Positions 11,927-60,996 of a DNA stretch of 64,000 nucleotides are shown here, piece by piece. Both the position numbers and the translations under genes were made by a program. Source of the DNA: an uncultured Acidobacteriota bacterium (GTDB lineage: Bacteria > Acidobacteriota > Vicinamibacteria > Vicinamibacterales > UBA2999); the NCBI GenBank assembly GCA_963818645.1, contig CAWFTF010000018.1, positions 136,617 to 200,616 on the forward strand, given 5' to 3'. Numbering within the stretch: position 1 is the first letter of the stretch; each line of letters opens with the position of its first letter. The notes under the pieces were generated by a model. That model ran no database searches. It was not told where the DNA came from and worked only from the letters and a program-made list of their open reading frames with translations.

Positions 11927-12196
11927 GTGAGCGAGAAGGTTCCCGCAGAGATCGCGGCGATTCTCACCGAGTTCGTCGAGAAGGTGGGACTGCTGCGCCG
12001 CGACATGCAGCACAAGAAGGAACTCGAGAAGTACGAGGCCCGGATGCAGCGCATCGAGCAGAAGCTCTCCGCGCTGGCCGAGCGAGTGTCAGTGGACGAT
12101 CCGGATCTCGCCAAGGCGATACGGACCGCGTGGCAAATGCCGGCCCGCAGCCTCGCGTTCCGGAACGCCACGCATCAAAAGCCGGAGGGTGGTTAG
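11927..12196 (+). CDS. Hypothetical helical protein (89 aa)
   Basis: Coiled-coil-like ORF directly after the BCCP gene, with typical codon usage. Confidence 0.65.
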   Translation: MSEKVPAEIAAILTEFVEKVGLLRRDMQHKKELEKYEARMQRIEQKLSALAERVSVDDPDLAKAIRTAWQMPARSLAFRNATHQKPEGG

Positions 12197-12266
12197 TGGT
12201 TGGTGGTCAGTGGACAGAACCGAACGCTGAACTTAACCACCCACCACCTACCACCATCCACCAACC
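12188..12266. repeat. Inverted pair of heptamer arrays, (RGTGGTT)n / (nACCACC)n, between convergent genes
   Basis: ggtggtt-agtggtt-ggtggtc-agtggac ... aaccacc-caccacc-taccacc-atccacc. Confidence 0.8.
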
Positions 12267-22620: not shown

Positions 22621-22653
22621 GCAGATCTACTTTAGCGCAGGGGGCTTACGCGG

Positions 22654-22688
22654 GGCTCTCGACTCTGGGCTCTGGGCGTTGGGCGTTG
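22654..22688. repeat. Heptamer array (GGCTCTG/GGCGTTG)x5
   Basis: ggctctc-gactctg-ggctctg-ggcgttg-ggcgttg. Confidence 0.8.
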
Positions 22689-22692
22689 GACA

Positions 22693-31146: not shown

Positions 31147-31226
31147 AACTGCCAACTCCCAACTTCCAACTCCCAAGGGCTCGTGTTGGGAGTTGGGACA
31201 AGAATCAGATTGGGCGTTGGGAGTTG
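31147..31226. repeat. Inverted pair of heptamer arrays, (AACTCCC)n / (TTGGGAG)n
   Basis: aactgcc-aactccc-aacttcc-aactccc ... ttgggag-ttgggac ... ttgggcg-ttgggag-ttg. Confidence 0.88.
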
Positions 31227-32531: not shown

Positions 32532-33168
32532 ATGACTGACAGGATCACCGTTCTTCTGGCAGACGATCACGCGCTCGTTCGACGGGGATTTCGGCGCATC
32601 CTCGAGGACGATCCCTCCATCGAAGTCGTTGGCGAGGCGAGCAACGGCGAAGAAGCCATTCGACTCTTCGGCGAGCTCAAGCCGAAAGTCGTGGTCATGG
32701 ACGCCGCCATGCCGGGGACAGGCGGTCTCGCCGCGACGCGCACCATTCTTTCGAGCCAGCCTGACGCGACGATCCTCATGCTGAGCATGCACTCCGAGGA
32801 GACGCTCGTGAAACAGGCCATGGCCGCAGGGGCGCGCGGTTACATCCTGAAGAACGCTGTCGACCTCGATCTCGCTGCGGCGGTCAAACGTGCCGCGGCC
32901 GGCGAAACGGTTCTCGATCCCGACAGTCGTCAAGCCTGCGCCCCTGGCGGGCGAGCGCGCACGGCGTCTGACGCCGCGCGAAACAGAAGTGCTCCAGTTG
33001 ATTTGTAACGGGCTCTCGAATCGCGAGATTGCTGCGCAGCTCGACCTCAGCGTGAACACCGTCGCCGTGCATCGCGCCAACATCATGAACGCGCTGGGTG
33101 TCCACAAGACTGCCGAGCTCGTCGTCTACGCACTGCAGCACGGCCTCGTCAACCCACTGCAACAGTGA
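32532..33168 (+). CDS. NarL/LuxR-family response regulator; frameshift near 32920
   Basis: 'LADDHALVRRG', 'GYILK', HTH 'LTPRETEVLQLI..GLSNREIA..L'. Confidence 0.93.
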
Positions 33169-34874
33169 CCCTTCGACATACTCAGGGTCACTCCGACCGG
33201 CGCGATTTCCTGCGTCATGTCACCGCTGGAGCGGCGGCGGCGCTGCTGCCGGCTTCTCTTCACGCTCAGACCCTCGGCTTTCGGCTCGTTGACGCAACGG
33301 CGTCGGCTGGCCTCCAGTTTCGACACAACAGCGGCGCGTACGGCGGAAAGCTTCTCCCCGAGACGATGGGATCCGGGTGTGCGTTCATCGACTACGACGG
33401 CGATGGGTGGCAGGACATCCTGCTGATCAACGGCATGGACTGGCCCGGGCACGCCAAACAGCGATCGAGCCTGAAGCTCTATCGCAACAACCGGAACGGA
33501 ACGTTCACGGACGTGACACGCGCGGCGGGCCTTGACGTCGAGATGTACGGCATGGGCGTTGCCGTCGGCGATTTCAACAACGACGGGTTCCCTGACGTCT
33601 TCATCACGTGCGTTGGGCAGAACCGGCTGTTTCGCAACACGGGCAAGGGGACGTTCGTGGACGTGACGCGGGCGAGCGGCCTCGGCGGGCGCGACGCGTT
33701 CAGCACGTCGGCCATGTGGATCGACTTCGATCGCGACGGCCGCCTCGATCTCTTCGTGTGCAACTACGTCCGATGGACGGCGGCGCACGACGTGTTCTGC
33801 AGTCTTGACGGCAAGCAGAAGTCGTACTGCACGCCGGAGGCGTATCGCGGCGAGACCTGCTGGCTGTTTCGCAACCGTGGCGATGGCACCTTCGAAGACG
33901 TGACGGCGACGTGCGGCATTTTCGACTCGAGCTCCAAGTCGCTCGGCGTCGCACTGATCGATGACGACCAGGACGGGTGGCCCGATATCTTCGTCGCCAA
34001 CGACACACAGCCCAACAAGCTCTATCGCAACCTGCGCAACGGCAAGTTCCGTGACGTTGCGCTCGAAGCCGGAGTGGCCCTCAGCGAGGACGGCAAGGCA
34101 CGGGCGGGCATGGGCGTCGACGCCGCCGACTTCGATGGGAGTGGCCGGCCAGGCCTGGCCATCACGAATTTCGACAACGAGATGATCGGACTGTACCGGC
34201 CGCAGTCCGGCGGTGCGTTTCTCGATGTGTCCAGCCGGTCAGGCGTCGGGGTCGCCTCACTCACGCGGCTGGGCTTCGGCTGCGTCTTCGCCGATCTCGA
34301 TCTCGATGGTGCGCTCGATCTCGTCGTCGCCAACGGGCACATCGACGAGACCGTGAGGAACATCCGCGGAAACGTCGGCTACGCACAAGCGCCGCTGCTC
34401 TTCCTGAACCAGGGCGGCGCGACATTTCGTGACGTCGCCAGCGTGGCAGGCAGCGGCTTCGCGCAGGCACGCGTCGGTCGCGGTCTGGCGTGCGGCGATT
34501 TCGATCGCGACGGCGACGTCGATCTGTTGATGACGACCAACAACGGACCCGCCGTGCTCTTTCGCAACGACCAGTCCGCTGGCAATCGTAGCGTGCGCCT
34601 CAGGCTGATCGGCACGCAGTCCAATCGCGACGCCATCGGCGCAACCGTTCGCATCTATCACGGCGGCACGAGTCAGTCACGCGTAGTGCGCAGCGGGTCG
34701 AGCTATCTGTCGCAGTCCGAGTTACCGGTCACTTTCGGCGTCGGCAAGCGAGACGTCATCGATCGCGTCACGATCGCGTGGCCGAACGGACGAGCCGAGG
34801 AGTTCACCAAGGTCGCGACTGGGAAGCAATACGACTGTATCGAGGGCAAGGGAATCTCGGAGAGCCCACGGTAG
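33165..34874 (+). CDS. CRTAC1/ASPIC-UnbV family FG-GAP repeat protein with Tat signal
   Basis: 'DRRDFL' twin-arginine motif, repeated D-x-D-x-D-G motifs, 'SNRDAIGA', 'SYLSQS...FG'. Confidence 0.9.
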
Positions 34875-34979
34875 CAACTCCCAATTTCCAACTTCCAACT
34901 TCCAACTTCCAACTTCCAACTTCCAACTTCCAACTCCCAACTCCCAATCTCAGAACGCCAAATCCCAATTCCCAACTGC
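34875..34979 (+). repeat. 15-unit heptamer array (CAACTYC)n
   Basis: caactcc caatttc (caacttc)x6 caactcc caactcc caatctc agaacgc caaatcc caattcc caactgc, starting immediately after the TAG stop. Confidence 0.97.
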
Positions 34980-34998
34980 TGACTCTCCCAAGGTGGCT

Positions 34999-35014
34999 TG
35001 GCACTGCCGGTGCA
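34999..35014 (+). promoter_or_regulatory. Putative sigma-54 (-24/-12) motif upstream of the four-helix-bundle gene
   Basis: TGGCACTGCCGGTGCA has GG-N10-GC spacing and a TGGCAC core. Confidence 0.5.
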
Positions 35015-35021
35015 TCGATTC

Positions 35022-35399
35022 ATGGGAGCGTCAGACTGGATACCTCAGAAACCGTTCGATCTTCGTGAGCGTTTGCTCGAGTTTGCTTGTCTCATCGTCC
35101 GGGTGGTGCAGTTTCTCCACACTCGTGGTCCGGTGGCCGCGGCACTTTCGTATCAGTTGCTGAAGTGCGGCACGTCGGCCGGCGCCAACTTTGAAGAAGC
35201 AGACGATGGGAGCAGCCCTCGGGACACCGCCGCAAAACGGAAGATCACGCTTCGAGAACTTAAGGAGACCAAGTTTCGTCTTCGAGTTCTCAGACGATGT
35301 GACATGTTGACGCGGGATCAGGATCCGGTCATCAATGAATCGGACGAGCTGATCCGGATCGTCGCGACCTTGCTCCGAAATGCTCCGCCTCGAAGATGA
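35022..35399 (+). CDS. Four-helix-bundle protein (TIGR02436 / 23S rRNA intervening-sequence protein family, Avd-like)
   Basis: 125 aa, 'DLRERLLEFA..IV', 'QLLKCGTSAGANFEEA...S..D...K..I.LRELKET..RL', 'ESDELIRI'. Confidence 0.9.
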   Translation: MGASDWIPQKPFDLRERLLEFACLIVRVVQFLHTRGPVAAALSYQLLKCGTSAGANFEEADDGSSPRDTAAKRKITLRELKETKFRLRVLRRCDMLTRDQDPVINESDELIRIVATLLRNAPPRR

Positions 35400-35443
35400 G
35401 TGGTTGAGAGTTGGAAGTTGAGAGTTGAGGTTTTTGGGAGTTG
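35400..35443 (+). repeat. Heptamer array (GRAGTTG-like, about 6 units), reverse complement of 34875-34979
   Basis: gtggttg agagttg gaagttg agagttg aggtttt tgggagttg, starting directly after the TGA stop. Confidence 0.85.
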
Positions 35444-35445
35444 AC

Positions 35446-36375
35446 ATGAAGAAGTTAGGACTCGCGCTGGTTGGACTCGGCCTGACAGCAATCGGGGTGT
35501 GGGCGCAGGAAAAGCAGCCTGAGCCGTCGCCCGCTTTTGAAGTTGCGTCAGTCAAGCCGAGCAGCTCGAATACCAGCAGCCCTCTCGGCGCGATTCCGAT
35601 GGTCATGCCCGCCGCCAATGGCCGGTTCACGGCGACGAACGTCCCGCTGCGTCTGCTCGTGCGCATGGCATACGGCGTCCAGGATTTTCAGATCGACGGT
35701 GGCCCGTCGTGGCAAATGTCGCAGCGCTTCGACATCACCGCCAAAGCTGAGGACGGCTCCGCGGCAACGATGCAAGCGTTGCTTCCAATGTTGAAGACGC
35801 TGCTCGCCGATCGCTTCAAGCTGAAGGTGCACACTGAAACGAGAGAGCTGCCGGTCTTTGCGCTCGTCATCGCTAGAGAAGATGGGAAGTTGGGGCCGAG
35901 CCTCAGACCGTCCACGTCTGATTGCTCGAGCGCGCAGGCGGAAAACCAGAAGCTCGCCGAAGCGTTCGCCAGGGGTGGCCCCGGTGCGTTGGCCGGAATG
36001 CTTCCGAAGCCGGGTGAGACGCGGAAGTGCGCGATGATGCCGTCAATGGGTGCGGGCGGTTTCGGAATGAAAGCGGACGGACAGCCGCTGTCGGCGATGG
36101 TTCAACTCCTCACACAGGCCACGGGGCGGGTCGTCACCGACAAGACGGGCCTGACGGGTCTGTACGACTGGGAGATCAAGTTCGATCCACAGGTGCTCAT
36201 GCAGATCGCATCGCAGGTCGGTGTCAATTTGCCCGCCGGCGCGAACCTTCCGGCGTCGGACAACCCGTCACTCCTGACCGCCCTGCGCGAAGACCTTGGG
36301 CTCAAGCTCGAATCCGAACGCGGCCCCGTTGAGATTCTTGTCATCGACAGCGCTGAGATGCCCGAAGCGAATTAG
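35446..36375 (+). CDS. TIGR03435 family secreted protein (Acidobacteria paralogous family)
   Basis: 'AFEVASVKP', '[12 protein letters not shown]', '[11 protein letters not shown]', 'L.LGLKLE....VEILVID'. Confidence 0.92.
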
Positions 36376-36381
36376 AACAAT

Positions 36382-36484
36382 TTGGGAGTTGGGAGTTGGC
36401 GTTCTTGGGAGTTGGCAGTCAGGAATTGGGCGTTGGGAGTTGGGCGTTGCGAATTGGGAATTGGGCGTTGGGAAGTTGGGAGTT
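36382..36484 (+). repeat. About 14-unit heptamer array (TTGGGAG/TTGGGCG)n
   Basis: ttgggag ttgggag ttggcgt.. ttgggag ttggcag tcaggaa ttgggcg ttgggag ttgggcg ttgcgaa ttgggaa ttgggcg ttgggaa ttgggag. Confidence 0.95.
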
Positions 36485-36550
36485 AACGCAGGAGCAAGTA
36501 GTACTTCCCCACTATTGCCCCCTACCTGATCCGACCAGTACAGTCGCCCG

Positions 36551-37114
36551 GTGGCCCACATTCCGCTTCCTGAGGGCGCCACGGGAATCCGTGCGCTGTT
36601 TGCGTTCCGCCCCGAATCGGCCCAACCGATGGCCGACCTGGCGAACACCTTGCTCCATGCACCCAACTCGCTGACACCCGGCGAGCGTGAACTGATTGCG
36701 GCATACGTCTCGTCGTTGAACGACTGCGCCTTCTGCCTCGATAGTCATGCGGCGATCGCGTCGTGTCACTTCGGCAACGACGAGGGGCTCGTTCACTCTG
36801 TCGTCACCGATCCCGCGACCGCGGAGATTTCGGACAAGCTGAAGGCGCTCCTCCACATCGCTGCACGAGTCCAGCAGAGTGGCTCGCTCGTGCGCCCAAT
36901 CGACGTCGAACGCGCGCGCCAGCAGGGTGCGAGCGACGTGGAGATCCACGACACGGTGCTCATCGCTGCGGCCTTCTGCATGTTCAATCGTTACGTCGAC
37001 GGTCTCGGCGCGGGAGCATCCAGCGATCCCACGAGCCTGCGGGAACGCGCCCGGCTCGTCGCCGAGCACGGCTACAGCATCTCTCTCCCGCAACCGCCGA
37101 CCCTGGTAGCGTGA
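36551..37114 (+). CDS. AhpD/carboxymuconolactone decarboxylase family peroxidase-related protein
   Basis: '[22 protein letters not shown]' (ExxxxxxSxxNxCxxCxxxH) and '[12 protein letters not shown]'. Confidence 0.9.
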
Positions 37115-51469: not shown

Positions 51470-51517
51470 CCGGGGCCCGGGATTCGGGATTCGGGATTCG
51501 GGGTTCGGGATTCGACG
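51470..51517 (+). repeat. Heptamer array (TCGGGAT)n, about 7 units
   Basis: ccggggc ccgggat tcgggat tcgggat tcggggt tcgggat tcgacga right after the stop codon. Confidence 0.9.
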
Positions 51518-52964: not shown

Positions 52965-53033
52965 AACTCCCAACCTCCAACTTCCAACTCCCAAGAAAAA
53001 CTGAGCACTAATTGGAATTGGAGTTGGGAGTTG
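52965..53033. repeat. Inverted pair of heptamer arrays, (AACTCCC)n / (TTGGGAG)n
   Basis: aactccc aacctcc aacttcc aactccc ... ttggaat tggag ttgggag ttg, between convergent genes. Confidence 0.9.
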
Positions 53034-53477: not shown

Positions 53478-53552
53478 AACTACCAACTCCAACTTCCAAC
53501 TCCCAAAAGAACGCAGAACGATTGGGAGTTGGGAATTGGAATTTGGGAGTTG
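53478..53552. repeat. Inverted pair of heptamer arrays, (AACTYCC)n / (TTGGGAR)n
   Basis: aactacc aactcc aacttcc aactccc ... ttgggag ttgggaa ttggaat ttgggag ttg. Confidence 0.9.
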
Positions 53553-60965: not shown

Positions 60966-60996
60966 TTGGGAGTTGGGAGTTGGAGATTGGCAGTTG
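60966..60996 (+). repeat. Heptamer array (TTGGGAG)n in a divergent promoter region
   Basis: ttgggag ttgggag ttggaga ttggcag ttg. Confidence 0.85.

Follow-up and report, generated by a model that had tools for sequence, protein, structure and literature searches.

Architecture of the locus

The 64-kb stretch of DNA analyzed here (henceforth the window; all coordinates are positions within it) derives from positions 136617-200616 of contig CAWFTF010000018.1 of an uncultured Acidobacteriota bacterium, whose assembly (GCA_963818645.1; 91.7% complete) is referred to as G000. It contains a 570-bp stretch, placed between two protein-coding genes, in which a gene for a four-helix-bundle protein of the PF05635/TIGR02436 family has on either side a tandem array of a 7-nucleotide unit, the two arrays being inverted relative to each other. 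The best explanation for this organization is that it represents a cassette, namely a promoter-less PF05635/TIGR02436 gene between two inverted heptamer arrays, with the architecture of the open reading frame (ORF)-bearing intervening sequences (IVSs) of 23S rRNA. With a probability of roughly 0.6 the stretch is one copy of a widespread IVS-type cassette lodged in an operon spacer and co-transcribed with the upstream gene. The PF05635/TIGR02436 family was itself first found inside rRNA intervening sequences. The components of the locus, with the support for each (TRF, Tandem Repeats Finder), are:

33165..34874, + strand: upstream host gene, FG-GAP/ASPIC protein of 569 aa (Pfam FG-GAP_3 6e-52, UnbV_ASPIC 3e-19)
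34875..34977, + strand: 5' arm, 15 heptamer registers in tandem (sequence, TRF, predicted fold)
34978..35021, + strand: leader from the 5' arm to the ATG of the ORF (sequence)
35022..35399, + strand: four-helix-bundle gene (TIGR02436/PF05635), 125 aa, ATG 35022, TGA 35399 (profile matches)
35400..35443, + strand: 3' arm, ~6 GRAGTTG-like registers, the unit being the reverse complement of that in the 5' arm (sequence, TRF, predicted fold)
35446..36375, + strand: downstream host gene, TIGR03435/DUF3738 (profile matches)
36382..36484, + strand: additional array of 14 TTGGGAG-type units (TRF; inverted pair with the 5' arm at a distance of 1430)

The cassette directly abuts the upstream coding region, with the TAG stop codon of the FG-GAP/ASPIC gene occupying 34872-34874. 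Nine of the 15 registers of the 5' arm are exact copies of CAACTYC and the distal five are degenerate, with an overall GC content of 45.6%; TRF delineates the array as 34875-34947 with a period of 7, 10.4 copies and 93% matches. The 3' arm begins at the base directly after the stop codon of the ORF, and two of its registers are exact GRAGTTG, the others being GAGAGTTG-like; here TRF recognizes 3.9 copies between 35403 and 35429, with 80% matches. The original prediction had described a 125-aa TIGR02436-type gene preceded by a 15-unit array that starts at the first base after the upstream stop, with which the sequence, TRF and the profile matches agree. Its estimate of about six units in the right arm stands as a number of registers after the ORF stop, but is generous given the two exact units and 3.9 TRF copies. 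The two co-directional, unrelated neighbors that it had reported are indeed an FG-GAP/ASPIC and a TIGR03435 gene, and the lower GC content that it had attributed to the ORF is real but modest (56.3% versus 64.3% upstream and 62.2% downstream; at third codon positions, GC3, 60% versus 81% and 63%, respectively). An alternative start of the ORF, TTG at 34998, would yield a protein of 133 aa.

A scan of 34600-36600 for sigma-70-like promoters found none, and the single terminator-like match in the same region (35066-35079, fewer than the 2.1 expected by chance) lies within the ORF. In the predicted RNA fold of 34865-35455 the two arrays pair around the ORF in both the minimum free energy (MFE) and the centroid structure (MFE -218.2 kcal/mol, z -3.4), as had been anticipated. 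The additional array at 36382-36484 lies directly after the TIGR03435 stop without a close partner of its own and is complementary to the 5' arm 1.4 kb upstream; hence, a larger alternative stem around both genes is conceivable, with this array as a possible alternative pairing partner of the 5' arm. An Rfam scan recovered no rRNA match in the window, nor in 20 other loci of the family, and an rRNA context was therefore rejected.

The four-helix-bundle protein

The protein encoded by the cassette is recovered by the TIGR02436 profile with 51.3 bits (cut-off 24) and by PF05635 with 36.2 bits (cut-off 33.8), and is a divergent member of the family, with 15-24% identity to 28 proteins of its relatives. 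A phmmer search matched it to PDB 2RLD (E 6e-14), which was deposited with five chains. Its AlphaFold2 model comprises four helices (predicted local distance difference test score 96.1), and Foldseek comparisons of this model gave template modeling (TM) scores of 0.91 to 2RLD and 0.88 to 2GSC, both of which are stand-alone proteins; lower scores were obtained with 4DWL (0.66) and with the Avd chain of 8UBE (0.77). PF05635 is reported to be the commonest accessory family near the reverse transcriptases of diversity-generating retroelements (DGRs) (PMC10053308), of which Avd is an accessory protein. The window protein thus shares the four-helix-bundle fold with Avd but is much closer to the stand-alone structures; moreover, no reverse transcriptase was found in the whole genome and no pair of template and variable repeats was seen. 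A DGR remnant was rejected since no reverse transcriptase was found. The original prediction had noted the lack of a transposase or reverse transcriptase for the window; in the entire 91.7%-complete genome neither Y1_Tnp nor RVT_1 found a match. Phage records, likewise, contained no match to a protein of the family.

Comparison with the ORF of G003 gave a dN of 0.018 and a dS of 0.140 (dN/dS ~0.13), and that with the ORF of G008 a dN of 0.32 and a saturated dS of 1.64; the ORF is under purifying selection. Already known are the protein family and its structures, the fact that it occurs in rRNA IVSs, and its relationship to Avd. What is new here is that IVS-type cassettes also occupy operon spacers, generally and across phyla.

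Bracketing by inverted arrays in the source genome and across phyla

The inverted arrangement was quantified by a flank score, for which the 350 nt preceding a gene on the left were locally aligned with the reverse-complemented 350 nt on its right. The window locus scores 37, as against 3000 random 320-bp intervals of the genome, among which 11 score at least 34 and none reaches 40. The genome encodes seven TIGR02436 matches, with flank scores of 103, 59, 56, 49, 37, 35 and 19; six of these (score >=35) are bracketed by inverted arrays, with a different unit in each case (GGTCCGA, GTTCCAG, TTGATTG, GTCCTCA, CAACTTC and GTAGGCA). The source genome is rich in heptamer repeats in general: over 3.93 Mb there are 924 TRF rows of period 7, versus 186 rows with a period of 6 and 196 with a period of 8. 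The period-7 rows form 186 unit classes, the largest of which is AACTCCC with 185 rows. Inverted array pairs are mostly hairpins with a loop of less than 100 nt, and a genome-wide scan for pairs with a loop of ~250-950 nt recovered 26 that score at least 40.

Loci with a flank score of at least 34 were counted as armed in the surveys of relatives and of other phyla. Among relatives of the same order this applies to 22 of 27 loci (two loci of G009 were left out). In G017 the count is 15/17 and in G008 it is 12/15. A scan of one genome per species yielded 80 family loci from Acidobacteriota, Planctomycetota, Chloroflexota, Proteobacteria, Firmicutes, Bacteroidota, Cyanobacteria, Actinobacteria and other phyla, and 56 of the 78 testable ones are armed, compared to a single one of 134 control intervals taken from those same loci. 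After removal of duplicates, 103 of 136 unique loci are armed, with a period of 7 in 86, 8 in 11, 9 in 5 and 10 in one. The enrichment of inverted period-7 arrays in the flanks of the family, which the original prediction had expected, was thus recovered in the source genome, in its relatives and across phyla, and bracketing by inverted arrays is enormously enriched for the PF05635/TIGR02436 family.

It could be argued that the gene merely lies by chance between two of the many intergenic heptamer repeats, a notion to which the sheer number of period-7 rows and the bracketing of about a dozen ordinary genes lend some color. However, six of seven paralogs carry arms of their own unit at scores seldom reached by random intervals, the layout recurs across phyla against a minimal control rate, and the same subfamily is found with the same unit at other sites (see below). 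Chance juxtaposition was rejected on these grounds and is exceedingly improbable.

The layout is also found on published plasmids, namely pNPUN01 of Nostoc punctiforme, where the gene is NPUN_RS33770, and plasmids of Calothrix, Gemmatirosa and Azospirillum. BT_0352 of Bacteroides thetaiotaomicron is a further annotated candidate. In a Picosynechococcus PCC 7003 plasmid (NZ_CP016476.1) an armed family gene is inserted between cas10 and cmr3, and in pANA02 of Anabaena sp. 90 (NC_019429.1) one lies between cas6 and cas4; on the alpha and gamma plasmids of Nostoc PCC 7120 the 3' arm alone remains, beside a transposase gene. In a figure legend of a large clustering study '23S rRNA IVP' is listed as a CRISPR-linked family (PMC10910872), an association that cassettes inside cas operons may explain.

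Across the loci that could be called by a GC3-based heuristic, which is distinct from annotation, the upstream neighbor is co-directional with the family gene in 49 of 61 cases and the downstream neighbor in 32 of 61, an orientation bias that fits a promoter-less gene carried by the upstream transcript. The arms also show a compositional bias: in 64 of 79 loci G+T predominates in the 5' arm, and among the 81 armed loci CAGT occurs in the 5' arm of 27 and ACTG in none; the window subfamily has the opposite handedness, with a 5' arm of CAACTCC. We considered the CAGT/ACTG bias as a polarity relative to the gene but rejected this: what the bias describes is how the inverted repeat is handed, a property that is identical from either strand and thus silent on gene orientation.

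Some copies point to degeneration. In the source genome there are partial-profile or internally deleted family genes that have kept their arms (C17:18016-18129, C16:179954-180148 and C12:202127-202369), and another occurs in G030 at the site equivalent to that of the window. As the family genes are partial or deleted while the arms persist, cassettes decay in place.

The gene and its arms as a joint unit

The unit of the arms is common to both loci (allowing up to one mismatch) in 29% of protein pairs with 60-75% identity and in 67% of those with at least 75% identity, over a background of 2-4%. Of 66 pairs that combine at least 60% protein identity with a like unit, 57 are without similarity in their outer flanks, and some of these cross phyla. 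Within the genus, the window subfamily was found in 20 of 36 congeners, and all 11 window-type loci examined have arms, in at least six different contexts. The CAACTCC unit is kept with the same handedness in window-type loci with at least 64% identity, and is replaced by CAATGCC or CAAATCC at 58%. Taken together, these comparisons show that the gene is accompanied by its arms as it reaches unrelated sites and other phyla, and that the arm unit drifts as the proteins diverge.

The orthologous site could be followed through the FG-GAP/ASPIC gene, which has orthologs of 76-97% identity in 20 congeners (G009 was left out). G003 (97%) carries the same cassette at the site. In G030 (83%) short arms surround an internally deleted remnant, i.e. 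a decayed relic. In G023, G012 and G029 the site is empty: the stop codon of the FG-GAP/ASPIC gene and the start codon of the TIGR03435 gene overlap as ATGA, and there are neither arrays nor a gene, such that the empty sites that had been predicted for relatives do exist. In G022 and G024 an AACTCCC-type array follows the FG-GAP/ASPIC stop with no gene, and the DNA beyond it is different. In the protein tree G000, G003 and G030 fall within one clade of seven (support 97/96) and the three empty-site genomes form a separate sister clade (100/99). The simplest reading of this distribution is that a single insertion took place into a translationally coupled gene pair, and that the site later decayed or was rearranged in some members of the clade; precise deletion restoring ATGA at the empty sites is a less likely alternative. 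On this comparative evidence the cassette at this site predates the divergence of G000 and G030 and is in decay in the latter.

Two Acidobacteriota contigs from metagenome-assembled genomes (L075 and L076) encode family proteins that are 80% identical and share the same arm unit, with the outer flanks matching in swapped order with respect to the gene, which is the pattern that an inversion of the cassette between the two arms would leave. This raises the alternative that the arms serve as recombination substrates, by which a promoter-less gene is flipped or deleted as an on/off switch with respect to upstream transcription. The rearranged downstream contexts of array-bearing sites in close relatives and the lack of a sense-strand G.U signal (see below) would agree with such a segment. 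Against it, the predominance of co-directional upstream neighbors is unlike what frequent flipping would produce, no recombinase is linked to the cassette, and no inverted form was seen at the locus in the contigs of four sequencing runs, albeit with poor cover. We therefore regard an invertible segment as very improbable.

Relationship to dispersed gene-less hairpins

Besides the seven family genes, the source genome contains 71 gene-less hairpins of heptamer arrays with a loop of at most 150 nt. In the window these lie at 2869-2938, 12189-12266, 31147-31200 and 53478-53552, usually directly after a stop codon, and are built from the units AAATGCA, GTGGTTA, AACTCCC and AACTTCC. Solo arrays are present at 51478-51514, 22653-22689, 60966-60996 and 52965-52994 (units CGGGATT, GGGCTCT/TGGGCGT, TTGGGAG and AACTCCC), and the family of CGGGATT arrays has 54 TRF rows in the genome with no cognate four-helix-bundle gene in the assembly.

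Since unit matching with one mismatch has a chance level of 10-25%, only exact matches were used in relating these repeats to the cassettes. Five of the six cassette units of G000 exactly match abundant dispersed families (AACTTCC/AACTCCC, ACTGCCT, ACTGAGG, AACAATC and AACCTGG), and 15-22% of the dispersed arrays are exact matches to cassette units from the genome in which they lie, as against a median of 0% for those of other genomes. Over all 71 hairpins the handedness is balanced (5' arm GT-rich in 37 and GT-poor in 34); yet, in families with a cognate cassette, hairpin and cassette agree in handedness in 50 cases and differ in 7, and these seven are mostly due to cross-matching between two similar families. 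Such fixed handedness speaks for common descent of each hairpin family by copying over independent slippage. An interruption of the AACTCCC arrays by AGAACGC was tried as a further mark of common descent and discarded as too weak (8 array-linked hits versus 0-5 for scrambled motifs).

It is possible that these relationships reflect a system of masters and satellites, comparable to RAYTs (the transposases associated with repetitive extragenic palindromes, REPs) and the REPINs (paired REPs), or to transposons and MITEs (miniature transposable elements with inverted repeats), in which each protein recognizes its own heptamer and copies or maintains a hairpin family, with the cassette as the autonomous member. 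This would extend the interpretation as an IVS-type cassette rather than exclude it. Apart from the exact unit matches and the shared handedness, it draws on the purifying selection on the ORF, on a fold that is that of the nucleic-acid-binding Avd pentamer, and on a period-7 density that is higher where family genes are more numerous (Spearman 0.76 over 18 genomes and 0.90 in an earlier set of 14, with samples of 36-200 kb per genome, those of G017 and G008 being from contigs known to carry family genes); three gene-less genomes sampled at ~120-200 kb each, moreover, have no heptamer excess. On the other hand, this correlation falls short of significance when only the genus is considered (rho 0.52, n=10), and large families of the source genome are without a cognate gene in it (AATCCCG, 54 rows; AACCACC, 30 rows). 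AACTCCC arrays are present in 35 of 36 congeners, and 7 of the 19 congeners without a detectable window-type gene have at least 10 AACTCCC-array matches per Mb, while two gene-bearing genomes have almost none; the medians are 12.1 and 6.3 per Mb (one-sided p 0.036, uncorrected for phylogeny). The protein, furthermore, has no recognizable catalytic domain, and the patterns would also fit cassettes inserting into pre-existing hairpins. We hold this extension to be possible, though less likely than not.

The converse proposal is that the hairpins are an independent feature of the host, either terminator-like or derived from simple-sequence repeats (SSRs), and that a mobile ORF lands in their loops, such that the arms belong to the target. 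The tenfold excess of gene-less hairpins over family genes, the plentiful arrays in genomes without a cognate gene, and the AACTCCC-type arrays that follow the same FG-GAP/ASPIC stop without a gene in G022 and G024 could be taken in its favor. However, the arms of the 23S rRNA IVSs are not part of the rRNA helix, which implies that they arrived with the insert. The empty sites at the window locus are likewise devoid of any arrays, related proteins have related arms in unrelated contexts and phyla, so that the gene would still need to choose its heptamer, and the three sampled gene-less genomes lack a heptamer excess. This makes a target-site origin of the arms rather unlikely, and we favor the view that gene and arms constitute a single cassette.

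Comparison with known systems

The closest parallel is offered by the 23S rRNA IVSs of Coxiella, Leptospira and others, whose ORF product is known as S23p. They share with the window cassette the same protein family and an ORF within stem-forming terminal inverted repeats. The Coxiella IVS has a 28-bp terminal stem that is cut by RNase III in vitro and 2-3 tandem heptamers (GACAGAT) before the ORF, whose copy number varies between strains; an old idea of IVS mobility is also cited in the same paper (PMC4990558). Sporadic distribution, decaying ORFs, the lack of a transposase and the tandem heptamers on the 5' side, as described for Coxiella (PMC4990558), are further likenesses, and the comparison with 23S rRNA IVSs made in the original prediction is thus an apt one. 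The differences are that the window cassette lies between two protein-coding genes rather than in helix 25 or 45 of 23S rRNA, that its arms are much longer (up to 15 units), and that its ORF is under purifying selection, unlike that of Coxiella, which its authors think is not made (PMC4990558). Cutting by RNase III is shown for the rRNA elements and is proposed by analogy for the window cassette.

The layout, though not the components, is also reminiscent of REP/REPIN-RAYT systems, in which a gene is flanked by inverted copies of a repeat that is dispersed as hairpins and paralogs each have their own repeat family. However, the gene in the window encodes a four-helix-bundle protein rather than a Y1 (IS200/IS605-type) transposase, and a RAYT was rejected since no Y1 transposase was found in the genome. 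The repeats are tandem 7-nt arrays rather than single palindromes, and a dependence of the hairpins on the four-helix-bundle gene is partly contradicted by gene-less but array-rich congeners. Similarly, terminal inverted repeats, short gene-less copies that outnumber gene-bearing ones and the internally deleted relic in G030 recall MITEs, from which the window cassette differs in having no transposase in or near it and no clear target-site duplication, and in that the cassettes of one genome are without a common terminal sequence, each having its own unit.

Heptanucleotide SSRs are known from the Nostocales as short tandemly repeated repetitive (STRR) sequences. An excess of heptanucleotides was reported for GGGAATC in Xanthomonas and GGGGAYT in Nostoc (PMC4692102) and for TAACTGA in Beggiatoaceae (PMC4679880), with X. 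campestris having 70 convergent inverted heptamer pairs (PMC4692102). These resemble the repeats described here in being intergenic tandem heptamers that often form convergent inverted pairs. The taxa concerned are also rich in the protein family: our plasmid matches are mostly from Nostocales, and 2GSC is a protein from X. campestris. The four-helix-bundle or IVS protein is not mentioned in the main texts of the two studies, which are what this search covered (PMC4692102; PMC4679880). Within the scope of our literature search, which left most subscription journals and supplements outside, no paper links the PF05635 family in general to inverted heptamer arrays outside rRNA or to dispersed hairpins; among the papers found, the Coxiella study alone notes heptamers, in its own IVS (PMC4990558).

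Proposed mechanism and its difficulties

The above-described features allow a mechanism to be outlined. Read-through from the FG-GAP/ASPIC gene would transcribe the cassette, and base-pairing between the two arrays, in any of several registers, would then give a stem of ~40-50 bp with the ORF in its loop. Given that the Coxiella 23S IVS combines an ORF of the same family with heptamers and a stem cut by RNase III, the window cassette may be read as an IVS-type element of an mRNA that is processed likewise, with RNase III cutting the stem of the arms by analogy to the rRNA IVSs. Such a cut would uncouple the two host cistrons and free a stem-capped mRNA for the small protein, so that the insertion would cost the host little. 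The protein itself probably acts on the nucleic acid of its own element, i.e. the repeats.

Several observations weigh against this interpretation. Across 81 loci the mismatches of the arms comprise 86 G.U and 115 A.C pairs on the sense strand; this absence of a G.U excess means that there is no sign of pairing selected at the level of the sense RNA, and the arms could instead matter at the level of DNA, or owe their similarity to some process of copying. The RNase III gene was not found in the 91.7%-complete assembly; it is present in 10 of 12 congeners. At the filled versus empty junctions no target-site duplication was evident in a comparison by eye, which has limited power, and the genome-wide lack of Y1_Tnp and RVT_1 matches leaves the proposed mobility without an enzyme of those kinds. 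Array-type pairs also enclose ordinary small genes (DinB, AhpC/TSA, Sel1, amino-acid kinase, cytochrome c, AHSA1 and disulphide isomerase), and bracketing is consequently not exclusive to the PF05635/TIGR02436 family; the orientation bias in turn derives from a heuristic. Finally, contig sets from soil and rhizosphere (two DNA and two RNA; runs X1, X2, X15 and X16) were inspected, and the two metatranscriptome sets contain zero contigs over the small gene, a result that is neutral with regard to transcription, processing and excision.

In these sets the region 34839-34992 is covered hundreds to thousands of times by AACTCCC-type arrays of other loci, the RNA libraries included; such arrays are abundant in soils, and the contigs of the source organism break at the left array. 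Contig joints from ~34947 to ~36381-36454 were considered as excision products and rejected: they carry other letters in between, and hence represent other AACTCCC hairpins.

Implications

Thus, in conclusion, the observation made in the original prediction is confirmed and its interpretation is partly supported. The ORF-bearing 23S rRNA IVS, a curiosity for 30 years, becomes a special case of a general cassette found in the operon spacers of many phyla, and also inside the CRISPR-cas operons of cyanobacteria. Practically, such cassettes split operons, break assemblies at their arrays and may mimic repeat arrays in automated screens.

More speculatively, and with clear reservation, PF05635 genes with heptamer arrays might constitute a class of autonomous mobile elements without a known transposase or reverse transcriptase, in which a pentameric protein reads a 7-nt repeat and seeds hairpin families; this class would then be the source both of the heptanucleotide excess of bacterial genomes (STRR, GGGAATC, TAACTGA) and of the ORF-bearing rRNA IVSs. 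A testable origin is thereby offered for that excess. Likewise, a family related to the DGR protein Avd gains a testable nucleic-acid partner, in the form of tandem 7-nt repeats that differ between paralogs, and if the binding of these repeats is specific the protein would be a naturally re-targetable repeat reader.

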